Source: Chthoniobacterales bacterium
GTDB lineage: Bacteria > Verrucomicrobiota > Verrucomicrobiia > Chthoniobacterales > UBA6821
Assembly (NCBI GenBank): GCA_049282095.1
Contig: JBAPTI010000004.1
Location: 1,770-65,769 of the forward strand
Direction of reading: 5' to 3'
DNA length: 64,000 nt
Shown here: positions 9,476 through 64,000 of the stretch, one piece after another
How the letters are laid out: every line of letters starts with the position of its first letter
Position numbering within the stretch: position 1 is the stretch's first letter
Translations under genes and position numbers: made by a program
The notes under the pieces: generated by a model
What the model was told of the DNA's origin: nothing
What the model saw: the letters and a program-made list of their open reading frames with translations, nothing else
The model's database searches: none

Positions 9476-10639
9476 TCAGGCCACCAGCGAGTCGAGGTAG
9501 GCCGAGGGCTCGTAGCCCTCGATCAGAACCTCCTGCTGGTCGCCACGCTTCATCCGGACCTGCTTCACGAGGATTTCCGGGGTCTTGTGCGGGGCGAAGA
9601 GGATGTCGTCGTGGGTGGCGTGGCTTTTTTCGGCGAACATGGAGGGGACGAGATGTCCTCCGAGATGGTCGCTGCGGCCGGTGGCCACATGGACGGTGCC
9701 GCGGACCTTCTCATCCTGGATGTCACGCCCGCTGACGGGAAGCAGCTGCGTGCCGAGACCGAGTTCGCCGAGTTCGCCGGTGACGGGATCGGAGGAAAGC
9801 TTGGCATTGTGGGCGGCGATGGTCGCGGCGCTCCCCTTGATGAGTTCGGCCTTCACGATGCGGCCGCCCGTAACGGTCATGAGACCCAGGGTGCCGTCCT
9901 CGTATTTGTGGGGGAAGGCACCCTCGGCGCCCTCGGGAACAAAGTAGACTTCACCCGCAGGCAGATTCGCGACATCGGGCTCGTCGCCGAGGCAGAGACC
10001 GTGGCTCTTCTGGGCTTCCTGCCCGTTCAGGATGAGGCGAAGAAGATGATCCTTACCCTCGCAGGCAAACTCGATCTCGATCCAGTCAGCCTTGGTGACT
10101 CCTTGGCGAAGCTTTTCGGCCTCGACGCTCACATCGTTGTAATCGACCGCCAGTCCGCTTGAGAGGATCACTTCGTTCACCCCGTGCAGCGTGGCGCCGC
10201 GGAAGCCGTACTGCTTGGCAAAGGCGGTCAGAGGCGCGGTGGCCGAGAAGGTGGAGATGCAGAGAATGATGTCGTAGTTGGGGTAGACATCCTTGGAGAG
10301 GCTGACTTGCTTGCCGGAGGGATCGTAGGCCACGTCGGGAAGGTCCAGATTGCTGCCACCGGTCAGCTTGTAGGCGAAGATCTCCCCACCCTTGAGCCCC
10401 ATCCTGGCGAGGATTTCCGAGTTGAGCGGCTTGTGGAACGACTCCACGGCGTGTTTCTGGATCGTGAGCGCGGGATTCTTCAGGAAGGCGAAGTCCTTGA
10501 TCTCGGCGGGATTCTCCAGATCAATCAGGATGCAGAGGCGCTGACCGGGCTTCGGGCCGAAAGTGGTCGTGAGCAAGCGCTCGAGACTGAAGGGAGGAAA
10601 TTTGCGGGCCGCGATCCGCTGGGCGATGGGTAGGGTCAT
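9476..10639 (-). CDS. M29 (aminopeptidase T/PepS)-like metallopeptidase
   Basis: 387 aa. Segments NLPAGEVYFVPEG, GELGELGLGT, DEKVRGTVHVATG and ATHDDILF resemble conserved M29 blocks as I remember them. Not verified by search. Confidence 0.45.
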   Translation of the reverse strand: MTLPIAQRIAARKFPPFSLERLLTTTFGPKPGQRLCILIDLENPAEIKDFAFLKNPALTIQKHAVESFHKPLNSEILARMGLKGGEIFAYKLTGGSNLDLPDVAYDPSGKQVSLSKDVYPNYDIILCISTFSATAPLTAFAKQYGFRGATLHGVNEVILSSGLAVDYNDVSVEAEKLRQGVTKADWIEIEFACEGKDHLLRLILNGQEAQKSHGLCLGDEPDVANLPAGEVYFVPEGAEGAFPHKYEDGTLGLMTVTGGRIVKAELIKGSAATIAAHNAKLSSDPVTGELGELGLGTQLLPVSGRDIQDEKVRGTVHVATGRSDHLGGHLVPSMFAEKSHATHDDILFAPHKTPEILVKQVRMKRGDQQEVLIEGYEPSAYLDSLVA

Positions 10640-45058: not shown

Positions 45059-45133
<75 letters not shown>

Positions 45134-48401: not shown

Positions 48402-49448
48402 TCACCATTCACAGCAGCCCGGATTGCTGATTCTTGAGATCGAGTGGCGGAGGCGGGCTTCGCTGTATTGTTCAAACAGGGCGGGGTTTTCCTTACGGAG
48501 CCGCTGGAGTTGTTCCCGCAGCGGATCGGGAGCGGGAGGCTCTTCCTCGGGAATATTGAGGGGAGCTGGTGGCTGGGTTTCTTTTCGACGAAAGATCGAG
48601 ATGATGGAGCCCAGCAAGCCGGGGCTGGTTTCAGGCTTGGGAGCATCGGGTGGGCGGAAATCCACGCGGGAGAGCGTGGGGAAGCCCTTGGCCAGCTTAA
48701 GAAAATCCTGGGCGGACATATCGTAGATAAAGGCATCAACGCTTTCCAGTGGGGCCAATCCCAGATCCACTGCGCGCTGACGGAGCAATTCCATATCCCG
48801 CTTCAGGCCCTCTTCCTTGCGGGCTCGAACCTCCTCGGAAACTTTCGCTGAGAACATGCGGTCAAAGGTGATGTCGTCATCATCCTTTTGTTTGGTAATG
48901 CGTGGCTTAGCCGGCCTCTCTTTCTCCTCAGGCTGGCTTTTCATAAAAGCGATCATCTCCACTCGTGGTTCCGGAGGATGAGGGGGCAGCCCCAGCTCTT
49001 CCAACCGACTCCAGAGGACACGCATTCCCTCGATCTCGGGAAAGATCTTCACAAAGAGCTCTCCTCCCATCAGCTCGAAATGGGCTCTGAGAGCCTCCAA
49101 CTTCGATGACAAGGCCTCCTGGTGCTGGTCGCGAAGGGTTTGATTGATTCCGCCGTTCATTCGCTCGGGATCACGTGGGAGCAGTTCGCAGGATTCGAGT
49201 TTGATACGCTCACGGATGAGACCCTCCAGAAGGCTGGAGGGCCAACCTTCGAGCTTCTGCTCCGAGATGATGTGATTTCCGGTGAATAGCCCGGCCATGA
49301 ACCTCCATCTCTTTTCGTGATACGCCTTCGTCTCGGGCAGGGCATCCCACGTGCTGCGCATCCGAGCGTAGGCGACGAAGAGATCGGGGGGAGAGATGTA
49401 GGGATCGGGTGGGGGCTTCATCTCAATCTCATGTTGGTGGGCGTTCAT
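48402..49448 (-). CDS. Hypothetical protein (orphan, charged central region)
   Basis: 348 aa, codon usage looks coding. 94 nt downstream of the M28 gene on the same strand. No motif recognised. Confidence 0.55.
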   Translation of the reverse strand: MNAHQHEIEMKPPPDPYISPPDLFVAYARMRSTWDALPETKAYHEKRWRFMAGLFTGNHIISEQKLEGWPSSLLEGLIRERIKLESCELLPRDPERMNGGINQTLRDQHQEALSSKLEALRAHFELMGGELFVKIFPEIEGMRVLWSRLEELGLPPHPPEPRVEMIAFMKSQPEEKERPAKPRITKQKDDDDITFDRMFSAKVSEEVRARKEEGLKRDMELLRQRAVDLGLAPLESVDAFIYDMSAQDFLKLAKGFPTLSRVDFRPPDAPKPETSPGLLGSIISIFRRKETQPPAPLNIPEEEPPAPDPLREQLQRLRKENPALFEQYSEARLRHSISRISNPGCCEW

Positions 49449-49542
49449 CGTGTCCTGCTGCTCACTCGTCGAGGATTCCTCTGCCCGGCAGTCCCATCAG
49501 GACTGACAAAGACGATCGCCATGGAAAATTCCGGCGACGGTT

Positions 49543-50457
49543 TCATGCCTGCTGCTTTTGGAGCGCCTCGACTGCGTTAGCAATTCTCCGTGTGAGCAGG
49601 GCCATGCGATGGTAATTGAGTTTTTCGGGCGTGTCGGATGAGCGGTGGTAGTGAGTGTTGCGGCACATGGCCGTGTCGGTGAGCATGATGGCCGGATAGC
49701 CCTCGTCCCAGTAGGAGAGGTGGTCAGACAGACGCAAAAAATCCCCCAGGAAGTCGGTCGAGAGAACAGGCAGGTCGTCGTCGCGTTCGAGTCCTGCATC
49801 GAACGAATCCATGAAATCCCGGGAGATTTCATTTCCGACAATGGCAAGAAAGTTGCCGATCGTAGGGTCGACACCGCTCAGGCGGCAAAAGTGATTGAGC
49901 TCCTCCGGGATGCCGAGAAAGCCAATCAATCCGAGAGACTGGGAGTCCGGCTCGTTGGTAAAAACACCGAGGCTTTCCAGACAGATCATCCCGGCGACGT
50001 TTTCATCGCGCTGACGGCATGATTTGGCATGGACGACACTTCCCATGTTGGAGGTGCAGAAATGAGGAGGCTCCTCGTTGGCAAAGGCGACAAATCGGAG
50101 CGCTTCGGCGCAGGGCTTTCCTGCAAATATCCGGGCCAATTCCAAAAGGATGGCAACAGCGGAGGCGTTGTCATCCGCTCCGGGAGTGCCAGGGGCCGAG
50201 TCGTAATGGGCACCGATGATGTAGTGGGGCTTGTCATAACCGACGAATGTGGACGGTAGAGCTTCGACATTGGCGCAGAGGACACCGTCCGCACGGAATT
50301 CCTGCCGGCTCACCTGATAATCCAGCCCCTGAAACGCTCCCGCCAAATAATTTGCAGCGCGCTCCAAGCCCTCGGGACAATTGCCCGTATTGCGTTCGGA
50401 AGCGCATAGCGTGGCAACATGAGATTTGAGAGCGGATTCGAGTCCTGAAAGATTCAT
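49543..50457 (-). CDS. M28-family zinc peptidase fold (aminopeptidase or glutaminyl-cyclase-like)
   Basis: HYDS, GADDNASAVAILLELAR, NEEPP and SDHLSY metal-ligand blocks. ATG 50457 (MNLSGLE...) is preferred over 50649 because the upstream extension covers a nucleotide-level repeat read in a different frame at its second copy. Confidence 0.7.
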   Translation of the reverse strand: MNLSGLESALKSHVATLCASERNTGNCPEGLERAANYLAGAFQGLDYQVSRQEFRADGVLCANVEALPSTFVGYDKPHYIIGAHYDSAPGTPGADDNASAVAILLELARIFAGKPCAEALRFVAFANEEPPHFCTSNMGSVVHAKSCRQRDENVAGMICLESLGVFTNEPDSQSLGLIGFLGIPEELNHFCRLSGVDPTIGNFLAIVGNEISRDFMDSFDAGLERDDDLPVLSTDFLGDFLRLSDHLSYWDEGYPAIMLTDTAMCRNTHYHRSSDTPEKLNYHRMALLTRRIANAVEALQKQQA

Positions 50458-50486
50458 GGATGAGGTTATCACGATACTGATTTCTT

Positions 50487-50559
50487 CCACCTTACCTCCA
50501 TCCGACGACAGGAAGTGTCTATCCCCATCTTTTTTTCCAGGTGGACACTTCCTGTCGTC
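50487..50559 (-). promoter_or_regulatory. Conserved 5' element copy 1 (33-nt block + 16-bp perfect hairpin)
   Basis: Block 50487-50519 is 30/33 identical to 52492-52524. Stem gacgacaggaagtgtc (50504-50519) pairs with gacacttcctgtcgtc (50544-50559), loop 24 nt. Ends 29 nt upstream of the M28 ATG. Confidence 0.6.
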
Positions 50560-50680
50560 CCCGGTTATGCGATAATCCTCCTTGAAACAGAAGATCAGAA
50601 AGGGCAGCTGACCGGGCGCGAGCCCGTTATGGTGGGATTGCCCGTCCACCCTGTTTCCCTCAACTCAACCACCCCCAAAT

Positions 50681-50818
50681 ATGATCACTGATCCCACGCC
50701 TACCCCTGAAGAGACCATTGCTAAAAAGGCCGAGCCTCAAGCCGATGACTTTGATCTTCCTGCCGAGAGACAGGATGGCACCAACTGCACCGACGACATC
50801 TGCACCGTCTGCCAGTAG
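50681..50818 (+). CDS. 45-aa acidic peptide with Cys/Thr-rich C-terminus (candidate RiPP precursor or small metal-binding peptide)
   Basis: My translation: MITDPTPTPEETIAKKAEPQADDFDLPAERQDGTNCTDDICTVCQ. Below the ORF-track length cutoff. Followed within 45 nt by a strong terminator. Confidence 0.45.
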   Translation: MITDPTPTPEETIAKKAEPQADDFDLPAERQDGTNCTDDICTVCQ

Positions 50819-50860
50819 TAGATTGACGCTCCCAGCTGACTTTGCAAACCGGAGTGCGTA

Positions 50861-50900
50861 GGCCGGGCTAGGGTTAACCCCTTCCCGGCCATTTTCATTT
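50861..50900 (+). terminator. Rho-independent terminator after the 45-codon ORF
   Basis: ggccggg-cta-gggtt/aaccc-ctt-cccggcc composite stem, followed by attttcattt. Confidence 0.7.
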
Positions 50901-51014
50901 CGGGGTCAGTCTGTCTCCTACGTCTTCTCCTCTCTTCACCGGCGCACCTAGCATCCAAGCCCGAACTGATGCTCGCAGGAAAGACCCATCAGCGGAAAAG
51001 CAACGGATAACAGT

Positions 51015-51371
51015 TTATCTGTCCGGGCGATGAGTAGAATCGGGTTCACCATCCGAGGCCAACGAACCAGGCCAGAAGGACGAGAGAACCTTTGGTTGCT
51101 CAGGCGTTGCGGGAGACTCCTTAACTGTATCAACAAGGAGTGAAGGGTCGTTGATGTAGCGATCAAAGAATTCCCGGATCGGCATGGTGATGTTCGATTG
51201 CGGTGTTGGGAAGACGGCCACGAGATCTTCCCCCACAATCTCGCCAGCGAATTTTTCGCCCTTACTGACAACACGGCAGGGGGTGTGCGGGCATCCCTCC
51301 CAATCCATGCGATGAAGGTGATCAATCAGGTGATCAATGACTGCGCGGAGGAGTGGAGGATCGGATTTCAT
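51015..51371 (-). CDS. Hypothetical protein (118 aa)
   Basis: 37 nt downstream of the 342-aa gene on the same strand. No motif recognised. Confidence 0.5.
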   Translation of the reverse strand: MKSDPPLLRAVIDHLIDHLHRMDWEGCPHTPCRVVSKGEKFAGEIVGEDLVAVFPTPQSNITMPIREFFDRYINDPSLLVDTVKESPATPEQPKVLSSFWPGSLASDGEPDSTHRPDR

Positions 51372-51408
51372 GAGGAGTTTACAGATTTTTTCGGGCAGCA
51401 GGATTCAA

Positions 51409-52437
51409 TCAATTCAGCACATCCGCCAGATCGTTCATGAATGCGGTCAAAACCGAATGCTCCTCGTCGCACTCGCCGGGTAATGAAGAAAACCGCACCT
51501 TGATATAGGCATCGAAACGGCCCGCCAGCAGAATCGTCGACATGAATCTTTCCTCTTCGGGTAAGGCCGTGCCGATCAGAAATCTGGCGTCTCTGAAGGG
51601 AAGAGCATCCCTGCCGTAGGTCGTGACACTGTTGCGAAGTGCCTTGAGACCGGAGACTGCATGGTGGGCTTCCAGCTCCGATACAGAGCCTTCCATCTGT
51701 GCTATCACTTGGTCCGAATCATGACCGGGTTCGATCAGCTCCTCCTGGAGATCGTAGATGTAGAGATCTACTTTACGGCCATCATCATCCCCATAGCGCA
51801 GGCTGATCCCTTCTCCGGGACCCGTGGACTCATAATCCGTGGCGAAGCAATAGGACATACCCCCCATCTCCTCGGGAAAGCGAATCCGGATTTTGTCGAC
51901 GGACAACCAAGAGGTCGATGAGTTGATGCGAGGTTCGCCCATGCTGCAGTAGGCGAATCGCATGGAGTTCTTGAGGAGATGATCCAGCCCTGCAAAACTA
52001 GGATCACCATGCCACGCCTCAGCTCCCCTTAGTGCCATGGAACTTCCGATGAACGACCGATCCTCCGTCAAGTGACCCAGCAGGTAATAGGACCGGCATT
52101 CGCCATCCGCCATGGAGTAATGACTGGTCATCATGAACCCATTGGCCATGGGTATCAGCCTGAGCGGGCCATCTTCCGGGAAGCCTGGGATGAACTTCCT
52201 CATCGTCTGATCGATGGATTCGGTGGAAACTCCGAATTGCTCGAGGTCATCACTATCGAAGGCGCAAGTTGCCCATTCGATCTCCAGCGGAAGATCTCCC
52301 ACTGAAAAAATCATGGAACCCTTCTCGGAAGTCGTTCGAAAAACCAATTCCGAGGGGAGTTGAATCCGGAAGATCCCATCATCGTAAATCTCTGATTCGC
52401 CCGAAAACTCGAGATTGCCCTTTGGGATGATGTTCAT
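51409..52437 (-). CDS. Hypothetical protein (342 aa, orphan)
   Basis: ATG 52437 (MNIIPKGNLEF...). The upstream 43 codons of the ORF-track entry cover the conserved non-coding block. No motif recognised. Confidence 0.55.
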   Translation of the reverse strand: MNIIPKGNLEFSGESEIYDDGIFRIQLPSELVFRTTSEKGSMIFSVGDLPLEIEWATCAFDSDDLEQFGVSTESIDQTMRKFIPGFPEDGPLRLIPMANGFMMTSHYSMADGECRSYYLLGHLTEDRSFIGSSMALRGAEAWHGDPSFAGLDHLLKNSMRFAYCSMGEPRINSSTSWLSVDKIRIRFPEEMGGMSYCFATDYESTGPGEGISLRYGDDDGRKVDLYIYDLQEELIEPGHDSDQVIAQMEGSVSELEAHHAVSGLKALRNSVTTYGRDALPFRDARFLIGTALPEEERFMSTILLAGRFDAYIKVRFSSLPGECDEEHSVLTAFMNDLADVLN

Positions 52438-52491
52438 GGGGAGTGTGAGGATGTGTTGGAAAATGGATGGTATGAAATTAGTGCGATAATT

Positions 52492-52563
52492 CCACTCTAC
52501 CTCCATCCGACGACAGGATGTGTCCACCTGGTGGTTTTTGACGGAATCACGACATCTCCTGTC
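52492..52563 (-). promoter_or_regulatory. Conserved 5' element copy 2
   Basis: Block 52492-52524 (ccactctacctccatccgacgacaggatgtgtc). Imperfect partner arm gacatctcctgtc at 52551-52563. Ends 54 nt upstream of ATG 52437. Confidence 0.6.
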
Positions 52564-52634
52564 CATCCTGCGGTGGCAAAATCCATTCTTTCAAACGACG
52601 ATTCCACCCAGATCTCCATTCCCTGTCCTCTCCA

Positions 52635-53372
52635 ATGCCCCGCATCGCTCTCATCTCCGATATCCATGGCAACATTGATGCCCTGGAAGCCGTGGTTGAG
52701 GACATCGGACGGCAACGGATCGATGAGATCTTCTGCCTCGGGGATATCGTCGGCTACGGGGCGGCTCCTGCCGAGTGCCTGCAGCTGGTTCGCGAGCACT
52801 GCACAGAGACGATCCTGGGCAACCATGATGAGTATCTGGTCAAGGGGCCCGATAACTATGTCCTGAGCAAGCGGATCGGTATCCCGCTCCTGCTTGCCCG
52901 GCAGACGATTCCCGGTGAGGACTTGCAGTGGCTGAGAGAGCGCCCCTACACGGTTGATCGGCACGGCTTCTCGATCGTCCATGGGACCCTGCACCACCCT
53001 GAGGAGTTCTACTACCTGCTGGAGCGCCGGGATGCAGTTCTGCACTTTGAGCAGCAGCGCACCCCGCTCTGCTTCCACGGGCATTCCCACCGTCCTCTCA
53101 TCACCCTGTCACAGCCCGATGGAGACATCCGTTGGGGCATCCCGTGGGAGACCGAGACGCTGCTTGACCGGAACCAAAGGCTGGCGATCAATGTTGGCTC
53201 CGTCGGCCAGCCTCGGGATCAGGATCCCCGCGCCGCCTACGGGATCTACGACATGGAGCAGAACTCCTTCACCCTGCGCAGAGTGGACTACGACATCGAG
53301 AAGGCCATTCAACGAATCGTGGACGCCGGAATTCCCGAGGAGAATGCCCGAAGGTTACGGGATGGGGTATGA
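52635..53372 (+). CDS. Calcineurin-like metallophosphoesterase
   Basis: SDIHGN, GDIVGYG, GNHD and HGHSH motifs. 245 aa. Confidence 0.8.
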   Translation: MPRIALISDIHGNIDALEAVVEDIGRQRIDEIFCLGDIVGYGAAPAECLQLVREHCTETILGNHDEYLVKGPDNYVLSKRIGIPLLLARQTIPGEDLQWLRERPYTVDRHGFSIVHGTLHHPEEFYYLLERRDAVLHFEQQRTPLCFHGHSHRPLITLSQPDGDIRWGIPWETETLLDRNQRLAINVGSVGQPRDQDPRAAYGIYDMEQNSFTLRRVDYDIEKAIQRIVDAGIPEENARRLRDGV

Positions 53373-53385
53373 AGAGGTTGGGCAC

Positions 53386-53841
53386 TTACTCTCTTTGTTT
53401 CAGGGATTCAAGAGCGTCGTCGTATGCTTGTTGTAATCTAGCAGCTTTTTGAGCTCTCTCTCTTAGAGTTCTGGAGGTTACCTTCCCTGACTTTTTTGGG
53501 TGACTTGCAGCTAAGAGTTTTTCATATGCAGCATGAATCTCTTGCTCAGTTGCATATGGCTTGATTTTAAAAACTCTCCACCAAGGGTCGCGATCATCAG
53601 GAAGCGAAGACAACACGATTATTTTTTCTGATTTAGATAAAGAACTTTCCTTTTTTGAAAATGGATCTTTTGAAAGCCTGAAATCAGGAAACTTTATTTC
53701 GCCCCTTTGCACTTTCCCACGTAGCCACCCAGCGAAATCTTTACTTTTACTATACAAGTATCCAATAGCCGCTCGTTTTTGTTGTGGGGAAAGTTGATCC
53801 CAGTAACTTTTTGCTGTTTCAAACGCAGTTTTCTTTTTCAT
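53386..53841 (-). CDS. J-domain-like protein (HPD replaced by HPK)
   Basis: C-terminal ATEQEIHAAYEKLLAASHPKK...AQKAARLQQAYDDAL follows the J-domain helix II / loop / helix III pattern. AT-rich gene. Confidence 0.45.
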   Translation of the reverse strand: MKKKTAFETAKSYWDQLSPQQKRAAIGYLYSKSKDFAGWLRGKVQRGEIKFPDFRLSKDPFSKKESSLSKSEKIIVLSSLPDDRDPWWRVFKIKPYATEQEIHAAYEKLLAASHPKKSGKVTSRTLRERAQKAARLQQAYDDALESLKQRE

Positions 53842-54382
53842 CGTCACGCCTGCTCGTTTCTTTTTTAGTAACTAACACATTTTTTATATCTTGAAAGAAT
53901 TTGGGCCAACTAAAATAGGCAAACGCCTTTCTAATCTCTAGCATCTTTTTACTGATGTCATATTCATCATTTTCCATAAATGTTTTAACAAAATCTGATG
54001 TTGTTCTCCATCTGTCTGCGCCGACTATAAACAATAGATCTTCATCTTTGAAATCACCACAAATAATCCTCCACCAAATTGTTGAAAATGGTATTGGGCC
54101 TATTATATCGGATCCTTCTTTTCTATAAAAAACCCATGGATCCTCGTCATTCTCTCGACCTGTAAAAGAAATATTCTTCCCGTGTACTGGGGAAGGAGGT
54201 ATTGCGCTACTAAGAGGCTGTGCATTGTCTATTATGTCATTAATCTTAAACAAATCATCTTCTTTAAGATGACCAATACGAAACAATGATATCACAATAT
54301 CATAAGGCCAAGAACCCAACTCGGAACCATCTCTATAGATTGTTAGATATTTTTTATCTTTTTTCTGAATATCGGATTTCAT
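53819..54382 (-). CDS. Protein with two GYF_2 (DUF4339)-like domains
   Basis: YLTIYRDGSELGSWPYDIVISLFRIGHLKEDDLF and WVFYRKEGSDIIGPIPFSTIWWRIICGDFKDEDLLFIVGADRW. AT-rich gene that overlaps the next gene. Confidence 0.5.
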   Translation of the reverse strand: MKSDIQKKDKKYLTIYRDGSELGSWPYDIVISLFRIGHLKEDDLFKINDIIDNAQPLSSAIPPSPVHGKNISFTGRENDEDPWVFYRKEGSDIIGPIPFSTIWWRIICGDFKDEDLLFIVGADRWRTTSDFVKTFMENDEYDISKKMLEIRKAFAYFSWPKFFQDIKNVLVTKKETSRRDDEKENCV

Positions 54383-54434: not shown

Positions 54435-57365
54435 TTATTGAATGGGCTTGATGCAATCAGAGGTGATGTAGGGGGTTGGATCGGTGATGATTGGGGGGAG
54501 GCCGGGGGCGGTGACGGGTTGGCCGGCGGTGATTCTCGCGGCGACGGATTGGTTGAGCGCGAGAAGCTGGGCGAGGAGGTCGGCCTTGGGATCGAAGCCG
54601 TAGGCCGAAAGGACAGCGGCATCGAGTGCGGCATGGGCATCCTTCAGCGGATTGGCTCCGGGGAGTTCGAGGGTGCGGTAGAGAGCACGGAGGCCGCCTT
54701 TGAGGTGTTGGATCGCCTCTTCGCGGATGCGGCGAACTTCACGCCCCGCTGCGGCCACGGCCTCGATAGCCTTGGCACTAGGGTCCTGTGGCCACGGGAA
54801 GGTGTCGAAGACAGATTCCGCACTGTAACGGAAATCGGATTTTAGTTTTCCGCATTTGGTAACAAACCAAAGCCAGTGCAGATGGGACTGAAGGATTCCG
54901 AAGCTGTAATCATCGGCAAATCCAAAAACCTGAATCAGATTGCTGGGCCTGAAAGCCTGATCGATGAATAGGAAGACCGGTCGCTTGGTGACATAGGCAC
55001 ACGCGAGGTAGCGAGGAAGGGGACGCAGGACGGAGAGCATCTCCGGACGGCCAAAGCTGAGTTGCCACCAGCGGGCTAGGAAGGCTTTGTGATGGCCGCG
55101 CATGTTCCCATCAGCATCTTTGCCATCCTCAGCCTTCTTCTCTCGATCGGGCAGGACTTGGGTCTTCACCCAGTCAAAGGCTCCACTGTATCCCGCTGCC
55201 GTGAGTTGATCCATCTGCTCGAAATCCAAAACAAATCGGCTGCTTGTACCCTTAGTCAGAACCTCTAGCCCATTCAAATACGGGTGAATCACCGCAGATG
55301 ATTTTGGATCTTTAATCAGAATCTCGTCTCTCTGTTCCTTCGTGAGCAAAAATCCTTCATGTCCGAGCATCTGGCCATTGAAACAGCGCTGGGGTTTGGT
55401 ATTGCAGTCGAGTGGCCCGGCTGTGCTGACATCGGTCTGATCGCTCAGGGCTGAGTTGATGACCGGAACATCACGGAAGTTGAGTTCGTATTCTTTCGAG
55501 GCTTTTTTCCCCTGTTTCTTCCACTGCTTTTTTGTCGCGGCGGAGGGCTCGACCTTATGCCAGAGGCGGCGGGTTCTCGGTAGGAGAGCGGGCTCCTGGG
55601 TCTTCACCCAATTCGCAATGGAGACGTGGACATTCGCCTCGCCGCTCCAGGGCTGGTTATCGACGGCCTCCACGATGGTGCCCTCCTTCACGATGTGATC
55701 GAGGCCGCCGACACGGGAGGCGTTGTTGCGGATGTTCTGTGTGCCGACGAGTCCGGCGCGGCCAGCTACGGGATCGGCAGGAGTACAAGGAGGCAAGTGG
55801 TCATGGGCGCGGCGGAACCAATAGACGCAGAAGTCGGCCATGCCGGGCACTTCGGGGTAGAGGGCGCGGAGTTTCTTCACGTAGTCGGGGCCGAGCTCGG
55901 GCTTGAGCAACTTGGCTCCGAGGAAGGGGGGATTTCCGATGATGGCGTCGGCCTTGGCCCATTCGGTGCGGGTGGCTTTTCCATCGGCTCCCTCGACGAG
56001 GAGGGCATCAGAGGCGATGAAGTTTCGATCGAGATTGTCGAGTGGCAGGGGACGCTCGGTGATGTGGAGTTCATCGATGGCGAGCTTCCTCGCGATCATC
56101 ATTGTGACCTTGGCCAGCTCAACGGCGAAGGGGTTGATGTCCATGCCGTGGAAGTTCTGTGCCGAGAGGAAGGAGAGGCGCATTTGGTCGCCGGCGGCCT
56201 TGCTCGGGAACTCGGTGTCGAGGCGTTCGTAGATGCGGGCCTCGAGGCGCTTCATCTCGCGGTAGGCAATGTAGAGGAAGTTCCCGGAGCCACAGGCGGG
56301 GTCGAGAACCTGGAACTCCTGAAGGCGGTGGAGGAGCTTTCCAAGGTCACGGGCGGTGGTGGCCTTCTCGATCTCCTTGCGCCATGGCTCGACGATTGTA
56401 GGGCCGACGATCTTCATGATGTCGGCGGGGTGGGTGAAGTGGGCGCCGGAGGCGTGGCGCTCTTCCTTGTCCAAGGTCTGCTCGAAGACGGTGCCGAAGA
56501 TCTCGGGCTGGACCTTGGACCAGTCGGAGGCCGCGCATTCCCGGAGCAGGACGATCTCGGGGCCTGTGAGTTCGAGCTCGGCGGGCTGACTGAAGACGCC
56601 GCCATTGAAGTAGGGGACGCCCTTGAAACGGCCTCCGGCGTTTCCGGAGGAGTTGTTCATCGCTCGGAAGAGGCCTCCAATGAGGTCGTAGCTGGTCTTC
56701 TCATCGACCTCGTCAAGGAGGCGGGTGACGAAATAGCGCTCCAAGAGCCCGATATCCTCGGCAAAGAAGGCGATCAGGATCTGGAGGATGAAGCGTTGGG
56801 CGAGAGGACGATCGACGCCCCGGGAGACGAGAAGATTGAAGCACTTCGCGAGCTTCGCCGCGGCCTCACGGGTGACGGCGACGTGCTCATTCTCAAAGAC
56901 GGGCTTGGGCTGGTCGGGGAAGAGGAAGGCGAGGGAGCCGTAGTTCTCTGCAAGGTCGGCCAGCTTGACCCTTCCTACGGGTGAATCCATCTGGGTCTCG
57001 AAGTCGTAGATCTCGAACTCGTCGAAGTTGCAGAGGATGACGTAGCGTGGGCGGCCGGGAACGAGTCGCGTCCAGTAGTCGAAGGCCTGGCGGTAGTGTT
57101 TCGAGAGCACGGTGCCGCGCTTCTTCATCTCGATCAGGACGAGCGGCTTCCAGACGAAGTCGGCAAAGGCGGTGCCGCCGCCATCCTCAGAGGCCTTGCG
57201 AACGCGGTACTCGGGCTCACCTCCCACATCGAGCGATCCGGGGTGACCGAATGCCTGAAAGAGGCGGTCGAGGAAGATGTGGGCTTCTCCCTTCTCATCC
57301 CCCTTCACATGGAGGCGCGCCCACTCGATAAAGGAGGAGAGTTTGTCGGTGCGGGAATCGCTCAT
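54435..57365 (-). CDS. MmeI-family type IIL restriction-modification enzyme (fused nuclease / N6-adenine methyltransferase / TRD)
   Basis: 976 aa. N-terminal D...ExK nuclease block (FADFVWKPLVLIEMKKRG), methyltransferase motif I VLDPACGSGNFL and motif IV IIGNPPFLG. Confidence 0.75.
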   Translation of the reverse strand: MSDSRTDKLSSFIEWARLHVKGDEKGEAHIFLDRLFQAFGHPGSLDVGGEPEYRVRKASEDGGGTAFADFVWKPLVLIEMKKRGTVLSKHYRQAFDYWTRLVPGRPRYVILCNFDEFEIYDFETQMDSPVGRVKLADLAENYGSLAFLFPDQPKPVFENEHVAVTREAAAKLAKCFNLLVSRGVDRPLAQRFILQILIAFFAEDIGLLERYFVTRLLDEVDEKTSYDLIGGLFRAMNNSSGNAGGRFKGVPYFNGGVFSQPAELELTGPEIVLLRECAASDWSKVQPEIFGTVFEQTLDKEERHASGAHFTHPADIMKIVGPTIVEPWRKEIEKATTARDLGKLLHRLQEFQVLDPACGSGNFLYIAYREMKRLEARIYERLDTEFPSKAAGDQMRLSFLSAQNFHGMDINPFAVELAKVTMMIARKLAIDELHITERPLPLDNLDRNFIASDALLVEGADGKATRTEWAKADAIIGNPPFLGAKLLKPELGPDYVKKLRALYPEVPGMADFCVYWFRRAHDHLPPCTPADPVAGRAGLVGTQNIRNNASRVGGLDHIVKEGTIVEAVDNQPWSGEANVHVSIANWVKTQEPALLPRTRRLWHKVEPSAATKKQWKKQGKKASKEYELNFRDVPVINSALSDQTDVSTAGPLDCNTKPQRCFNGQMLGHEGFLLTKEQRDEILIKDPKSSAVIHPYLNGLEVLTKGTSSRFVLDFEQMDQLTAAGYSGAFDWVKTQVLPDREKKAEDGKDADGNMRGHHKAFLARWWQLSFGRPEMLSVLRPLPRYLACAYVTKRPVFLFIDQAFRPSNLIQVFGFADDYSFGILQSHLHWLWFVTKCGKLKSDFRYSAESVFDTFPWPQDPSAKAIEAVAAAGREVRRIREEAIQHLKGGLRALYRTLELPGANPLKDAHAALDAAVLSAYGFDPKADLLAQLLALNQSVAARITAGQPVTAPGLPPIITDPTPYITSDCIKPIQ

Positions 57366-57454: not shown

Positions 57455-57919
57455 TTATCGGAAATTTCCGTGAATCCATCGGGCGTGGGCAAAGCAGCTC
57501 TCGATGATCCGATCACGAACGAGGTGTTCGGCCTCGGTATCCGACAACTTCCGATCCTCCATGACCGGGAGGATGATTTCCTCGTGAAGCTCCCAATCGC
57601 TCATGCGCGGAAGCTTCCCGTAGAGCGCGAAGAGATCGGCGGCCATGTCCCAGTAGTAGCGCCACATCCCGGTGAGGCTTTCCGAAACCTCGGAATCCCT
57701 CACCCACTCACAGAATGCCTGATACGAGGCGAATCTCCCCTCGATCAACGCATCAGGCCCCATGACCTCGTCGCAGAGATCGCCCAGGATGCTGACTGCT
57801 GTCATCAGGAAGGAGCGCATGGCGCCCGCCCCGGTGAGGAGATGGTAGGTGTCCGAGGCTCTTTCTGACTCCGAAAGGAAGTCGTCGATGGTGAGTCGGG
57901 GTTGCTGGTGGCTGGCCAT
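57455..57919 (-). CDS. Hypothetical protein (about 154 aa)
   Basis: ATG 57919 (MASHQQPRL...) lies 17 nt after the upstream gene stop. No motif recognised. Confidence 0.5.
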   Translation of the reverse strand: MASHQQPRLTIDDFLSESERASDTYHLLTGAGAMRSFLMTAVSILGDLCDEVMGPDALIEGRFASYQAFCEWVRDSEVSESLTGMWRYYWDMAADLFALYGKLPRMSDWELHEEIILPVMEDRKLSDTEAEHLVRDRIIESCFAHARWIHGNFR

Positions 57920-57936: not shown

Positions 57937-58650
57937 TCACCGGAGGTGCTTGGGAACGAAGTAGTTCCGGATCCACCATACCCCCACCATGAAGCAGGGC
58001 CCTGAAAACATGAAGGCTCCGGGGGCGAAGGACTCGCTCTGCTCGGAAAGAAACACGAGCAGGATCGCCGAGATACCCACCAGGATCGCGGTGAAGCCCA
58101 GAAAGAGAAAGAAGCCATCCTGATAGCCGTCCCGGTGGAAATCGCCGATCATGCGGTTCCAGTTGTCCTTGAAGCTCTTGGGATCGGGACGACTGTCAAA
58201 CAACTGTGCAAATGCACCAAGCATCACAAGCGGGCCGAGAATCCACCCGATGAATGGCAGGAGCAGCAGCAGGAGACCCAGAATCAGGCATCCGAGAGAT
58301 TCCTTGGCCCGTTCTTTGAAGGGTTTGTAACCGCTTGGAAAACTGGCTGCCAAGTAGGGTGCGATGTTTCGTTGTCCAGGAGCGGGTGAATTCAAGTAAG
58401 GTTTCTCCTCTTGAGTAGCATCTAGGGTTGGTGTCACTCGAACCATGGATGACGAATGCAGGAGTGCAGGCTCTCTGAGAAAGACTTCCAGTGGCTTCCA
58501 TTTACCTCCCTCTTCTCTAGCCAAATCAGAAAGCGTGATCCGTCCCTCCACAAGCATGGCGTCGATGAGATCCATGCCGAAGGGGCCGTAGATCTCGTCT
58601 TCGCGAAGGATGAAGATCATCGTCTTCTCAGAAGGCCACGGTTGTTTCAT
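57937..58650 (-). CDS. GYF_2 domain + four-TM membrane protein
   Basis: MIFILREDEIYGPFGMDLIDAMLVEGRITLSDLAREEGGKWKPL, then hydrophobic helices. Start is ambiguous (58668 TTG, 58650 ATG, 58620 ATG). Confidence 0.55.
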   Translation of the reverse strand: MKQPWPSEKTMIFILREDEIYGPFGMDLIDAMLVEGRITLSDLAREEGGKWKPLEVFLREPALLHSSSMVRVTPTLDATQEEKPYLNSPAPGQRNIAPYLAASFPSGYKPFKERAKESLGCLILGLLLLLLPFIGWILGPLVMLGAFAQLFDSRPDPKSFKDNWNRMIGDFHRDGYQDGFFLFLGFTAILVGISAILLVFLSEQSESFAPGAFMFSGPCFMVGVWWIRNYFVPKHLR

Positions 58651-58715
58651 GAACCCACTCTTCCACAACCGGGTAGACAGGAGGTGTCTAGTCAGCGGGA
58701 ATAAATTCCCTGCGC

Positions 58716-59783
58716 CTATTCACCATAGACCGATGCCAATGCGCGGGCTTTCTCCGCGATCGTTTTCCGGAGGAGAGCGGGGGCGATGACCTTCACAGTG
58801 GCTCCCCAGCCCAAAATCCATGGCTCGATCTCGAGGAAGGTCGGCTTGGCGAAGGGGAGTTCCATACGGATGCGCCCACCGGCAAGGGGAGTCGTCTTCT
58901 GCTCAGGGTGCCAGAGAGTCTCCGAGGCTCGTTGGGCCGCACCCGCCTCGAACTCGAGTACGACGGGCTGCTTAGGCTTCCGGTCGCTGGCCACAATCCC
59001 GAAACTATAACGGAAGCTCTCAGAGGGTTCCCTTGAATCGGGTACGAATGTCGCTTCGGTAATCCGAGCATTGCTGATGCGAGCGAATTTGAGGGTTCGG
59101 CGTTCGGAGGTTCCTGCCTTGGTGGCATGGAGGTACCAGGAGCCGTTGCGCATGAAGACGAAGCGGGGTTCGAGTGTTCTGGAATCCTTAGGGCCGACGG
59201 ATGGCTTGTAGTCGAGGACGACACGGCGGCTCTCGCGGATAGCCCGGTGGAGGAGCTCGAAGAGGCGGACGTCTTCCTTTCCGATCTCGGGCTTTCCCTC
59301 GAAGCGGAAGTGGACGGAGCTCTCCCACTTCTTCCAGTCGGTGGTGCCGGTGAGGATGCCGAAGGTGTGCTCGAAGGACTCGATCATGCTGCGCCCGATT
59401 TCTGTGGAGCGGTAGGGCTCTAGGCACTGGCGCAGGAAGTGGAGCGTGAGCAGGTCACGGTCCCCGATCTGGACGATCGGTAGGTGCTTGAGATTACCAC
59501 GCAGGGCGTAGCCCCGCCGAGCCTTGTCATGGACAATCTCGTTCGTCTGTTTTTCTCCTTCGATATTGCCCAGAAGCGCATTCAGTTGCGCGATGTCGCG
59601 CTGAATCGTTCGAGTATCGACCTCGCAGATCTTGGAGAGCTTGGCGAGTGAGGGGTAACGCTTGTTCTGAACCTCCGAAAAAATCAGGAAAAGCCGATGG
59701 ATGTGATCACGGGAGGTGTTTCCATGGATCTGCTTACGTTTTTTAGCGGGCGGCTTGCCGGATGACTTTCTAGATGAGGCCAT
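58716..59783 (-). CDS. HTH + WYL-domain transcriptional regulator (BrxR/CapW-like architecture)
   Basis: N-terminal HTH (SLAKLSKICEVDTRTIQRDIAQL), literal WYL triad (NGSWYLHAT), C-terminal WCX-like tail (EPWILGWGATVKVIAP). Confidence 0.75.
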   Translation of the reverse strand: MASSRKSSGKPPAKKRKQIHGNTSRDHIHRLFLIFSEVQNKRYPSLAKLSKICEVDTRTIQRDIAQLNALLGNIEGEKQTNEIVHDKARRGYALRGNLKHLPIVQIGDRDLLTLHFLRQCLEPYRSTEIGRSMIESFEHTFGILTGTTDWKKWESSVHFRFEGKPEIGKEDVRLFELLHRAIRESRRVVLDYKPSVGPKDSRTLEPRFVFMRNGSWYLHATKAGTSERRTLKFARISNARITEATFVPDSREPSESFRYSFGIVASDRKPKQPVVLEFEAGAAQRASETLWHPEQKTTPLAGGRIRMELPFAKPTFLEIEPWILGWGATVKVIAPALLRKTIAEKARALASVYGE

Positions 59784-59845
59784 AGCTTTATCCGCCACCG
59801 ATAACCCCTCACACACGGCCTGACGAGTGGATTTCTAGCTCTTGT

Positions 59846-60115
59846 CTAGAGGGTCTCTTCCGGTGGAAGAAAGTCCTTCACATCCATGGGATGCTTCCGT
59901 TTTAACAAGAAGCTATAGAGCCTCCATTCCGGATCCGGAACGGTTTGCTTGTATGGCGGAAAAATGACCGTCGTCGTCCTCAGGCCGTCGACTGCCTCCT
60001 GGCGGTAGAAGCTTTCGACCTGCTTGGGGCGGAAGACGAAGTCGTTGATGATGACAAAGTCAGAGTAGTTGTCCGGTGCGATGCTGTATTTGTTGTTGGG
60101 TCCTGTGATGGGCAT
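59846..60115 (-). CDS. Hypothetical protein (89 aa)
   Basis: ATG 60115. Overlaps the relaxase 3' end by 56 nt. No motif recognised. Confidence 0.35.
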   Translation of the reverse strand: MPITGPNNKYSIAPDNYSDFVIINDFVFRPKQVESFYRQEAVDGLRTTTVIFPPYKQTVPDPEWRLYSFLLKRKHPMDVKDFLPPEETL

Positions 60116-61166
60116 GGTGTTGTTGGTTGTAGTGTTGGTGTTCTAGGAGATAGGTACGTTTGAGCTTGGTAAGGGTCTGCTGCATCTGGCGGAGAGAACG
60201 GCATTGAGCAGCGACTCCGAGTTTTTCCCCAGCTCGTAGCAGGGGGTTCTTTCTGGCCATCAAAACCTTTTCGGCTGCCCGTGCGGCACGAAGGAGAGTC
60301 AGCTGTTTCTTCTTTTCGGCAATGGTCGCTTCTAGCCCTAAGATCGACTCGTAGGATTGGCGCAAATGGGATGCCGCCTGGTGATCCACGTCAATCAAGG
60401 CGATCCGCTGGGCAGCTGAAAGCCTTGGCACAATCGCTAACTTTTCTTGATCGAGACGCTTCGTCAGAGACTCCTCGACCTTCTGCTGATTGGAGAGGAA
60501 TTCGCCTCGGAGCTGATTCTCCCGCTCGAACCATTCTCTCATGAAAACCATCTGGTTTTTATGCCTCCCGGGATGTCGGGACATGCTGCATCCAACGTAT
60601 CGTCCCTTCGCACTTCTGGGACACAGGGCGACGTGAACATGGAGGTTATCCGTGTCGTGATGGAGCCCGTAGGCATAGCCAATCGAGTCACTCCGATGGA
60701 ACTTCTCGGCGAACCGTTCCATCACCTTTTTGACACTGGAAATCACCACCTGATCGGGGCTGATCCCGGCCTTTACGAGAGCATCGTGCTGCTCGGTCGA
60801 CATCGAAAAAACGAGCCGATGAGCCACGACAGGCTGCTTCGCCTGAGATCCAAAACGATTCAGATGATGCCTCCAGACCTCGGTGATTCTCCTCTTCCTT
60901 TCCTCATTGGAAAGTTTGCTAGGAGCGGTGCTTGTCCCATCTGGATTCCGGCGAATCGCGTGATGCAAAAAGCCCCCGACATGAACCTGACCGAGTGATT
61001 CTTTTGAGGCATAATCCGTAAATCCCTTCAGCTTTTTTCCGACTTCTTCATCGAGCTTTTTGGCAGCACGAAGGGATGATTTTCGTCCGGAACTCTCGTC
61101 CAGATATTCCAGATCGAGCCTCCCCCGCGCCGTCGACTTGTGCGCGAAAATGAGGCCGTTCTTCAC
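60060..61166 (-). CDS. Relaxase/mobilisation nuclease (MobA/VirD2 family)
   Basis: Histidine triad context GLHHDTDNLHVHVAL. GTG start overlaps the upstream stop (GTGA). Confidence 0.6.
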   Translation of the reverse strand: MKNGLIFAHKSTARGRLDLEYLDESSGRKSSLRAAKKLDEEVGKKLKGFTDYASKESLGQVHVGGFLHHAIRRNPDGTSTAPSKLSNEERKRRITEVWRHHLNRFGSQAKQPVVAHRLVFSMSTEQHDALVKAGISPDQVVISSVKKVMERFAEKFHRSDSIGYAYGLHHDTDNLHVHVALCPRSAKGRYVGCSMSRHPGRHKNQMVFMREWFERENQLRGEFLSNQQKVEESLTKRLDQEKLAIVPRLSAAQRIALIDVDHQAASHLRQSYESILGLEATIAEKKKQLTLLRAARAAEKVLMARKNPLLRAGEKLGVAAQCRSLRQMQQTLTKLKRTYLLEHQHYNQQHHAHHRTQQQIQHRTGQLL

Positions 61167-61988: not shown

Positions 61989-62192
61989 ATGCCACAAAAC
62001 GCATCCAGCAAAACTGATGATCTGACCAAGGTGAAAACCTGGCTAGAGAAGCCGGAACAGGCCGAGATCCTCGGCTATCTCCGGGAGATGATACGACCGA
62101 CGCTACGGCCGGAACGCCATGAGGAGTTCATCCTCAAGAAGGCCCGACGATTCCTTCGCTCCACGGGCTTCCAACTTCCCGAAGAACGATGA
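61989..62192 (+). CDS. Hypothetical small protein
   Basis: ATG 61989 (MPQNASSK...). ATGA coupling to the next gene. Confidence 0.4.
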   Translation: MPQNASSKTDDLTKVKTWLEKPEQAEILGYLREMIRPTLRPERHEEFILKKARRFLRSTGFQLPEER

Positions 62193-62497
62193 GCGAAGAT
62201 CACAATCTCGCGGAGGGACAAAAGCGTCCCCGCAACACGGGTGAAGCCCTGCTCTTGCTGAAGTCTCTCGTCGGCCCCAAAGGGGATCCACCGGGGGCTC
62301 ATCCCAAGTCGGAATTCATCAACACCAAGACCGCTGCCCAGTGGCTCGGTATCCCCGAACGGTCGATGCAGCAGTACGTCCAGATGGGGCTCCTCCCGAG
62401 CTACAAGCTCGGCAAGCACCGGCTCTTCCGTAAAAACGAACTGCTGGAGGCTCTGGGCGCCACTCGCAGGGCTACCCGCGCGGAGATTCTGAGGTAG
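62189..62497 (+). CDS. Excisionase/MerR-like helix-turn-helix DNA-binding protein
   Basis: INTKTAAQWLGIPERSMQQYVQMGLLPSYKLGKHRLFRKNELLEAL, an HTH_17-type pattern. Confidence 0.6.
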   Translation: MSEDHNLAEGQKRPRNTGEALLLLKSLVGPKGDPPGAHPKSEFINTKTAAQWLGIPERSMQQYVQMGLLPSYKLGKHRLFRKNELLEALGATRRATRAEILR

Positions 62498-63290: not shown

Positions 63291-64000
63291 TCATTTGATT
63301 GTATCAAGATTATCCAGATTCATTGCTATCCCGAAATTGCGCTCAAAGTGGAAGATATTCCATCGACTGACCTGTAGACGATCATGGCCCTTTGCTATGG
63401 CATCCCTTAAGGCATTTGCATCAGTGATTCCGGTAATAATCGCTAGCTTCTTAAAGTTCTTGTGTTGTGCTGCTCGGATGAAGAAGGGAAATTCGGTTGC
63501 ATAACCTGCGTAATGCATCAGCTGAGGATACCAGCGGGTATCTGCTGTGATAAACGAGATCAAAAGTGTCAACAGGTCGGCTTGGATAATGTCCGTAAAC
63601 GGTAGATCTTGGCGTGTTGATTGTCGCTTTATCAGTTCCGCAGCTGGACTGTAAAGCCTTTGACCTTCCGGCGCCAAGACGGTGTTTAGGGTTTCGGAAT
63701 AGCCGTAAAAATCGTCGAACTTTCCAAAACGATCAAGTCCATGCCTCTCTGTTGACGGAAGGATGTAATGCGATGTGTAAATATTGTGAAGATCCTCATA
63801 TGCACGGACTTTCAGCAAAGCCGCAATGATGTAAAGAAATGTCTCGTAAACAAAAAGCTTGTGCGCCTCGAACCAAGCATCGTTCCAAACTGTAACCTCT
63901 TCGGGGCGTGCCTTGATTTCTCGCAGTCGCTCAAGGAGCTGAATCAAGGATTCACTGAAGTCTTCAGATGGAGACACTTCCCCCTCAATGAGAACCCAGT
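63291..64000 (-). CDS. Hypothetical protein, 5' end probably outside the window
   Basis: The ORF-track start at 63977 is a GTG, and the frame stays open upstream to the window edge (...WVLIEGE-VSPSEDF). No motif recognised. Confidence 0.45.
   Translation of the reverse strand, partial: WVLIEGEVSPSEDFSESLIQLLERLREIKARPEEVTVWNDAWFEAHKLFVYETFLYIIAALLKVRAYEDLHNIYTSHYILPSTERHGLDRFGKFDDFYGYSETLNTVLAPEGQRLYSPAAELIKRQSTRQDLPFTDIIQADLLTLLISFITADTRWYPQLMHYAGYATEFPFFIRAAQHKNFKKLAIITGITDANALRDAIAKGHDRLQVSRWNIFHFERNFGIAMNLDNLDTIK

Follow-up and report, generated by a model that had tools for sequence, protein, structure and literature searches.

Here, we analyzed a 64-kb stretch of DNA (the window; contig JBAPTI010000004.1) whose host is a soil or freshwater Verrucomicrobium (Chthoniobacterales, Verrucomicrobiota), and we focus on six genes lying together at 48402-53372, which are probably four of the five transcription units of a local regulon under a WYL-domain transcription factor of the DriD/DdaA/PafBC class encoded at 58716-59816. 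An initial annotation had described an M28 peptidase gene followed by orf348, a 45-codon open reading frame (ORF; pep45), orf342 followed by orf118, and a calcineurin-like phosphoesterase gene, and had proposed that these make up one undescribed system. All six ORFs were recovered, with the M28 start revised to 50457, and the cargo is indeed uncharacterized, though the single system fared less well, given that gene order is shuffled and membership varies between genomes and that the control logic is that of a described class of WYL regulators. The novelty thus lies in the phylum, the cargo, and a leader RNA, with the control principle already known.

The two minus-strand units of the six-gene region, M28-orf348 and orf342-orf118, are preceded by a shared block of 35 nt (50485-50519 and 52490-52524) that is 91% identical, as the initial annotation had seen, and a 25-nt version of this block has two matches in the window versus 0.00 expected. 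The inverted repeat reported in it resolves into two divergent copies of one box, whose core is the 13-nt pseudo-palindrome GACA-N5-TGTC. A count of the bare GACA-N5-TGTC pattern over the 64 kb gave exactly five, each before one of five transcription units, i.e., M28-orf348, the 45-codon ORF, orf342-orf118, the phosphoesterase gene, and a fifth unit at 58.7 kb that begins with orf243. The claim of co-regulation by a shared upstream element is supported, but there are five box-bearing units rather than two, the small ORF and the phosphoesterase gene among them, and the WYL regulator had been overlooked.

We scanned the window with a position weight matrix (PWM) of the box built from 22 sites, taken from the window and from loci L002-L023 (L-numbers denote related contigs or loci compared with the window), such that results from L024-L034 and L061 are independent of it. 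Only the five boxes scored above 13 bits, all of them intergenic and each aimed at a gene start; the consensus of the 22 sites is GGTGGACACTTCCTGTCGTC, and the extended form of the box is GGTGGACA-N5-TGTCSNSS. At the first site, box 1 (GACACTTCCTGTC; 50507-50519, minus strand; 30.3 bits) faces M28-orf348 and forms a divergent pair with box 2 (GACACTTCCTGTC; 50544-50556, plus strand; 32.8 bits), which faces the leader RNA and pep45. At the second, the strong box 3 (GACACATCCTGTC; 52512-52524, minus strand; 30.4 bits) faces orf342-orf118 and is divergent from the weaker box 4 (GACATCTCCTGTC; 52551-52563, plus strand; 16.7 bits), which faces the phosphoesterase gene from 71 nt upstream of its ATG. 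Box 5 (GACACCTCCTGTC; 58676-58688, minus strand; 24.1 bits) lies directly downstream of the WYL gene and serves the fifth unit. The layout of box 2 is repeated in L011, L014, L015, and L061, and box 4 is also present in L011 and L022. With no copies in window positions 1-45000 and all five copies promoter-proximal and gene-directed, the block does not behave as a generic repeat of the REP or MITE type, and in an Rfam scan of 48-60 kb the sole match was a chance miRNA-like hit on a divergent box pair.

The boxes also keep a fixed distance to a promoter-like hexamer. Of 41 non-redundant boxes, 17 have a TAnnnT hexamer 12-14 nt past the core (versus 0.19 expected per offset), and most other boxes have near-variants of it at the same place (GAGAGT, AAGAGT, CAAAAT). 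For the window, these −10-like hexamers are TAAGGT (12 nt on) for box 1, GATAAT (14 nt) for box 2, TAGAGT (12 nt) for box 3, CAAAAT (13 nt) for box 4, and AAGAGT (13 nt) for box 5. No −35 hexamer was found at the correct spacing, the hexamer 17 nt upstream of the −10 being CACTTC-like and agreeing with TTGACA at 0 of 6 positions, and the box spans about −37 to −25 of the predicted promoter. Many genes, including the orf348 family and orf243, start 5-7 nt past the −10 hexamer, which implies leaderless transcripts; the transcript from box 5 is probably one of these, with an ATG 6 nt past its AAGAGT. Two other promoter classes were tried and set aside. An ECF-sigma or MerR-type promoter does not fit by its spacing, TGGACA lying 21 nt from the −10 hexamer. 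A LexA/SOS box was considered since a box-driven operon of L002 contains UmuD-like and UmuC-like genes, but the adjacent WYL regulator is the better explanation of the box; the LexA motif of Verrucomicrobia, TGTTC-N4-GAACA, is unlike the box.

The regulator gene (58716-59816, minus strand; 355/366 aa, with a probable start at ATG 59783 giving 355 aa) shares the strand of box 5 and lies immediately upstream of it. Its product has an HTH_11-WYL-WCX architecture in Pfam (HTH_11 6.2e-6, WYL 2.1e-12, WCX 4.9e-12), is 100% identical to an NCBI protein annotated as "WYL domain-containing protein" from a Chthoniobacterales bacterium metagenome-assembled genome (MAG), and matched only generic WYL models in PADLOC. 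The closest solved structures are DriD 7u02 (E 1e-6, single sequence) and PafBC 6sj9 (E 1.4e-15, profile). BrxR 7qfz was matched by profile at E 3.5e-5 over the WYL domain alone, and no BrxR/CapW chain, 7qfz included, was among the ten single-sequence matches at E<=1. Judged by sequence, the regulator is nearer DriD and PafBC than BrxR.

Boxes cluster around WYL genes in several genomes. The arrangement of WYL gene then box is repeated in L011 (WYL 86% identical) and in L061, and when genomes were scanned with the WYL alignment, six Chthoniobacterales/Spartobacteria/Verrucomicrobiia MAG loci came up at 48-61% identity, each of the six with 1-5 boxes that read CGACAYNTCCTGTC no more than 10 kb away. 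The boxes of L024-L029 read CGACAYNTCCTGTC(G), with the consensus CGACA-N5-TGTCG, and the three Chloroflexota WYL loci returned by the same scan (~30% identity) showed no box. In a shuffle control, 178 kb of verrucomicrobial WYL loci held 28 boxes versus 0.85 expected; the window had none in its first 45 kb, and 229 kb of unrelated viral contigs had two. Related contigs also place recognizable genes behind the box, classical DNA-damage genes among them. A full-length phosphoesterase homologue is divergent from the WYL gene with a box between them in L024, and L025 has the same layout but with only the N-terminal 58 aa of the phosphoesterase matching. In L033 (WYL 80% identical; boxes at 6745-6757 and 9895-9907), a box precedes an operon of an AddB-like PDDEXK protein and a UvrD-type helicase, and a perfect palindrome, GTGGACA-N5-TGTCCAC, lies between the RmuC and WYL genes, an arrangement suggestive of autoregulation and of a connection with double-strand-break repair. 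The L002 box stands before an operon containing UmuD-like S24 and UmuC-like IMS genes, and in distant genomes boxes precede an M50 peptidase gene, an AAA ATPase gene, and operons with dynamin-like genes or with YbjN and HAD genes.

The WYL activators PafBC, DriD, and DdaA are described as LexA-independent damage sensors, and our literature search found no WYL regulon described for this phylum. Of the three, mycobacterial PafBC gives the best PDB profile match to the regulator and likewise acts on activator-dependent promoters without a −35 element, and the right half of the box with its spacing, TGTCGNNN-N8-TAnnnT, resembles the RecA-NDp motif tTGTCRgtg-N8-TAnnnT. PafBC differs in being a heterodimer or fusion on an asymmetric element, whereas here there is a single gene and a palindromic site. 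DriD, an SOS-independent DNA-damage activator of Caulobacter crescentus, shares the HTH-WYL-WCX architecture and is closest by single-sequence search, although only ~180 residues (WYL-WCX) align, at low identity and with the HTH unaligned. Its box core is CGAC-N7-GTCG, and its boxes extend over the −35 position and keep a constant spacing to the −10, in promoters without a −35 element (PMC13004042), a geometry shared by the pseudo-palindromic core and the predicted promoters described here. The regulon of DriD has small proteins and repair functions, which find a counterpart in the AddAB-like, RmuC, and UmuDC-like genes of related contigs; on the other hand, the outer half-site is GGTGGACA here versus ATACGAC in DriD, the phylum differs, and the window cargo is almost entirely uncharacterized and sits in a defense-type island, with single-stranded DNA sensing known from relatives and putative here. 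DdaA of Moraxellaceae is a WYL activator of both DNA-damage and anti-phage genes, including repair and restriction-modification (RM)/CRISPR defense genes, and its box is CGWCA-N5-TGWCG (PMC12392091). The verrucomicrobial CGACA-N5-TGTCG of L024-L029 fits that formula literally, as does the right half-site in the window, and the mixed repair/defense regulon parallels the box-linked AddAB-like, RmuC, and UmuDC-like genes together with the embedded restriction enzyme, in a comparison based on box and regulon content rather than on a protein alignment. DdaA differs in that nothing here points to LexA replacement, and control of the restriction enzyme is read only from its position.

From these likenesses, we infer a mode of action in which a dimer of the WYL protein would bind the pseudo-palindromic GACA-N5-TGTC box of each unit through its N-terminal HTH and would activate rather than repress. 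With the box in the −35 place, 12-14 nt upstream of a TAnnnT-like −10, binding of a nucleic-acid signal by the WYL domain would recruit RNA polymerase to promoters that have no −35 element, and all units would be switched on together. The signal in characterized relatives is single-stranded DNA, which here could arise from DNA damage or phage replication. The products induced would then be a cytoplasmic M28 peptidase with the helical orf348 protein, a structured leader RNA with an acidic, Cys-containing 45-aa peptide, a double PsbP/Mog1-like orf342 protein with orf118, an ApaH/SapH-like metallophosphoesterase, and a GYF-domain membrane protein with orf174, with possible read-through into the MmeI-type restriction enzyme.

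Several observations weigh against this reading. The left half-site in the window is GGACA or AGACA, one base off the CGACA formula; boxes are missing from the vicinity of several orf342 homologues with 41-47% identity (L004, L010); and within the window no recognizable DNA-repair gene stands under a box. The link between regulator and box is one of co-occurrence, and the PWM was drawn partly from L011 and the window, leaving L024-L034 and L061 as the independent loci. Further, a WYL gene that heads a co-oriented cluster with a restriction enzyme in a defense island is also the layout of BrxR/CapW repressors. Finally, box counts cover the window and the related contigs rather than the rest of the source genome, and the regulator may accordingly be either a cell-wide master or island-specific.

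Activation is the more likely mode of control, with BrxR-like repression as its main rival. BrxR-family regulators have been reported to co-localize with defense islands (PMC9122601), and a regulator of the BrxR/CapW type acting at the same box with the opposite sign would silence a potentially toxic defense island by occluding its promoters and release it on phage sensing, an account that we consider rather unlikely. It draws on the co-oriented, defense-type cluster that the WYL gene heads and that includes the MmeI-type RM enzyme, a layout kept in L061, on neighbors that include SoFic, Abi_alpha, AbiE, type I RM, and bSEFIR-like genes, and on the fact that a box overlapping the core promoter would also suit a repressor. 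However, the homology to BrxR 7qfz is weak, with DriD and PafBC scoring much better, and the box belongs to another class, its core being that of the activators DriD and DdaA. There is no −35-like hexamer at the right spacing, so these promoters are probably weak without an activator. BrxR operators are known from the brxR promoter, whereas the window, L011, and L061, three of four contigs, have the box downstream of the WYL gene rather than at its own promoter; the fourth, L033, has a box between the RmuC and WYL genes. Even less probable is that the WYL gene lies near the boxes by coincidence and that another factor (a repressor or an alternative sigma), or a recombination or mobile repeat, accounts for them, an explanation that we regard as very unlikely. 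The shuffling of box-bearing units between genomes makes cassette-like exchange conceivable, but box density follows WYL homologues across six independent MAG loci and elsewhere does not rise above background. In length and symmetry, the 13-21-bp palindromic core is what an HTH dimer would be expected to bind, and it agrees with the boxes of DdaA and DriD; the fixed 12-14 nt to the −10 is a trait of promoters and not of repeats, conservation ends at ~35 nt, and ECF-type −35/−10 spacing is a misfit.

The idea that the six genes constitute one dedicated machine for defense, signaling, or peptide maturation, e.g., with the M28 enzyme processing the 45-aa peptide, appears unlikely as well, although it accounts for a real pattern of co-occurrence. 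Homologues do co-localize in other genomes, as a neighborhood check showed, albeit in shuffled order: among contigs with an orf342 homologue at least 59% identical, six also hold a phosphoesterase gene and six an orf348 homologue, pep45 recurs in four of them and orf118 in three, and L061 adds one case each of orf348, pep45, and orf118, with the phosphoesterase reduced to a 48-aa remnant. The window and L061 share synteny over the stretch from WYL to orf348 (WYL, orf243, orf174, IIG RM, then orf342, orf118, pep45, M28, and orf348), with boxes at the same four places as in the window and inserted genes for a 127-aa protein, DUF6717, and EcsC; the orf348 homologue of L061 (P0026) is listed in 92 sample blocks. 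The M28 and pep45 genes are divergent neighbors in these two lineages. Against a single machine, order, orientation, and membership vary between contigs, and unrelated genes are interleaved (DUF6717, UmuD-like, UmuC-like, EcsC, type IIG RM). The order in L011 is phosphoesterase, then orf342 directly before M28, with pep45 3 kb from M28; the M28 gene is absent from L002, L008, L014, and L015, the last two being short contigs; the interleaved UmuD-like and UmuC-like genes are those of L002, and the only unit neighbor of orf342 in L008 is a truncated orf348-like gene. Identities are mosaic in L015 (orf118 84%, pep45 91%, orf342 only 60%), every unit has its own promoter box, and in distant genomes the box drives quite different genes. 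Peptide maturation in particular finds no support, as no product is a YcaO, radical SAM, lanthipeptide synthetase, or similar RiPP-type modifying enzyme and the adjacency of M28 and pep45 is inconsistent. PADLOC likewise gave no match for the six genes. Taken together, shuffled order and variable membership fit a regulon of independent units better than one obligate machine.

One recurrent box-driven gene of these contigs is absent from the window. It encodes a DUF6717-like small protein (Pfam 2.8e-5 in L002; also listed for L061) and lies directly upstream of orf342 homologues in L002 (7348-7752 and 9530-9955) and L015 (~3150-3560), and ~1.9 kb upstream in L061 (4738-5106).

Among the cargo proteins of the regulon, the M28 metallopeptidase (304 aa; 49543-50457, minus strand; Pfam Peptidase_M28, E 7.8e-22) was called mechanically as 49543-50649, but its start is ATG 50457 rather than the upstream GTG, because homologues 93-97% identical align from residue 1. 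Its metal-ligand motifs are kept (HYDS, DDNAS, EE, and a C-terminal YH, by alignment to the PDB aminopeptidase 2ek8), and no signal peptide was seen. The window products were searched against Pfam, NCBIfam, PHROGs, and PADLOC (PADLOC-DB v2), and orf348, orf342, orf118, and the 45-aa ORF had no match in any of the four, in agreement with the initial annotation, which recognized no motif in four of the six products; none of the orphans matches a housekeeping family. None of the six products (0/6) matched any known or candidate defense model in PADLOC, where matches were confined to flanking genes. Predicted structures, which the initial annotation had suggested as a check, gave weak matches for orf342 and no PDB fold match for orf348. 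The AlphaFold2 (AF2) model of the orf348 product (48402-49448, minus strand; ORF call) is all-helical with disordered Pro/Glu-rich linkers (mean pLDDT 70.8), and no PDB fold matched it with E below 2.7. The orf348 family comprises 20 clusters and is the most widely retained of the box-linked ones, its homologues being box-preceded in L002, L008, L015, and L034 (where the WYL protein is only 50% identical) and the second gene of a box-driven unit in L011.

The orf342 product (51409-52437, minus strand) is modeled by AF2 as two tandem alpha/beta domains of the PsbP/Mog1/Tsi3/DcrB/LpqN type (mean pLDDT 79.5), with weak Foldseek matches in the PDB to Tsi3 4n7s, PsbP 2xb3, and LpqN 6e5d (E 5e-4 to 1e-3, target TM ~0.5). 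The predicted fold is a binding, adaptor, or immunity-like one, and no catalytic motif was recognized. The family comprises 22 clusters, and a profile search of 1.84 billion representatives returned only ~8 full-length relatives. The C-terminal domain (residues ~180-340; window 51409-51900) had 406 representatives at E<=1e-3, most with this domain only, defining a widespread family of ~195-aa proteins without a Pfam model, one of them from a complete Kiritimatiellota genome. Pfam returned no match for ten remote relatives of this domain, all "hypothetical" by their source names; no orf342 relatives were found in a genome-collection scan of 185,579 species representatives, and the profile had no match by sequence in the PDB. 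The orphan orf118 (51015-51371, minus strand; ORF call) has homologues in L061 (92% identity), L015 (84%), and L011 (43%, partial), each of them the distal gene of a box-driven operon. In the distant orf342 locus L004, a TerB+DnaJ gene and an M28 gene lie nearby, and a search of this box-less locus for a shared motif gave none.

The calcineurin-like metallophosphoesterase (245 aa; 52635-53372, plus strand; Pfam Metallophos_2, E 4e-19) is closest to the uncharacterized structure 3rqz (E 7.6e-42) and to 3qfm, and its homologues adjoin orf342 homologues in L002, L009, L011, L012, and L022. Fragments, remnants, and a split match (a possible frameshift) of the phosphoesterase also lie by boxes in L011 (15974-16090 and 9071-9800), L012 (5398-5463), and L061 (6730-6873), a pattern indicating that units have been gained, have decayed, and have been replaced more than once at the same promoter sites.

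The unit behind box 5 begins with orf243 (237 aa from ATG 58650; 57937-58650, minus strand), which has a weak N-terminal GYF_2 match (Pfam 0.0037) and a hydrophobic C-terminal half, and homologues at 73% identity in L011 and 88% in L061. It is followed by the orphan orf174 (57455-57919, minus strand; ORF call; probably 154 aa), whose L061 homologue (79%, 154 aa) starts 17 nt past that of orf243. The MmeI-type type IIG RM gene (54435-57365, minus strand; PADLOC REase_MTase_IIG, E 0) lies on the strand of orf174, 89 nt past it, and its L061 homologue is 93% identical, is in the same position, and has the domains MmeI_N, MmeI_hel, MmeI_Mtase, and MmeI_TRD. The WYL, orf243, orf174, and IIG RM genes are thus co-oriented with gaps of 17-90 nt, an arrangement kept in L061 with two orphans between WYL and RM, and by its position the RM enzyme is possibly co-transcribed from box 5. 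Nearby, orf187 (53386-54382 region, minus strand) resembles the GYF_2 type by eye only, orf243 alone having scored in Pfam, and the gene that follows orf187 encodes 153 aa with a weak match to the DnaJ J-domain (1.8e-5). In L034, a gene for a GYF_2+Yip1 protein is divergent from the WYL gene.

The plus-strand unit behind box 2 comprises a 78-nt leader RNA (50582-50659) and pep45 (50681-50818), an acidic 45-aa peptide ending in CTDDICTVCQ. The initial annotation had called this ORF Cys-rich with its own terminator; it has three Cys only, all within the last 11 residues, and a hairpin followed by a T-rich run (50861-50890; inverted-repeat scan), kept in L015, is a probable terminator of the unit but failed a strict terminator scan. 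The ORF is conserved in five contigs (the window, L011, L014, L015, and L061), and the aligned copies of the first four differ by in-frame indels and have a common acidic body and C-terminal Cys motif. The leader, which lies between box 2 and the pep45 ATG and is better conserved than pep45 itself, folds in RNAalifold into a closing stem with three hairpins (22 pairs, three of them compensatory, with 99% of pair cells paired), and its covariance model found five copies at 92-103 bits. The covariation score was reached by 23 of 500 shuffles, with five sequences only, making the support for the structure suggestive only. The leader had no Rfam match, and none of its 24 pattern matches in viral contigs was confirmed by the covariance model. 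L014 has a ~100-nt insertion between leader and pep45 ORF, and thus the leader may act independently, as an sRNA or riboswitch-like element.

The six-gene region comes after a tRNA-Val gene (45059-45133) and falls within DNA of lower G+C content (0.42-0.58 versus 0.60-0.64). The island setting proposed by the initial annotation was upheld, the island being rich in defense genes: its left flank holds SoFic (2e-122), a PD-T7-4-like DUF4145 protein, and Abi_alpha/PDC-S47 (Pfam, PADLOC), and its right flank holds the MmeI-type type IIG RM enzyme and a bSEFIR-like protein (PADLOC). The latter (63291-63977, minus strand; 2.2e-11) lies in the right part of the island together with a weak MobA/VirD2-type relaxase match (60060-61166, minus strand) and an HTH_17 (excisionase-like) protein (62189-62497, plus strand), and these bSEFIR-like, relaxase-like, and HTH_17 genes suggest a mobile-element origin. 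No tRNA-Val-derived direct repeat marking the island end was found within the 64-kb window, such that its far end would lie beyond 64 kb or be unmarked. In such a setting, a phage-defense role of the cargo is possible. A stronger version is speculative, and we hold it to be rather unlikely. In it, the 11.4 kb from the WYL gene to orf348 (48.4-59.8 kb) would form an immune island inducible by damage or infection, in which the orphan units (orf342-orf118, M28-orf348, and the leader RNA with pep45) would act as one or more undescribed effectors of phage defense or abortive infection, turned on by a WYL activator along with the MmeI-type RM enzyme, and the leader would be a new class of cis-regulatory RNA.

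Together, the equal box core and promoter geometry suggest that the same damage-to-defense WYL circuit operates in Chthoniobacterales. The locus is not a new kind of system; rather, the box provides a precise, searchable handle on uncharacterized proteins, one peptide, and one structured RNA as candidates for damage- or infection-induced functions, turning the hypothetical proteins of such islands into a testable list.

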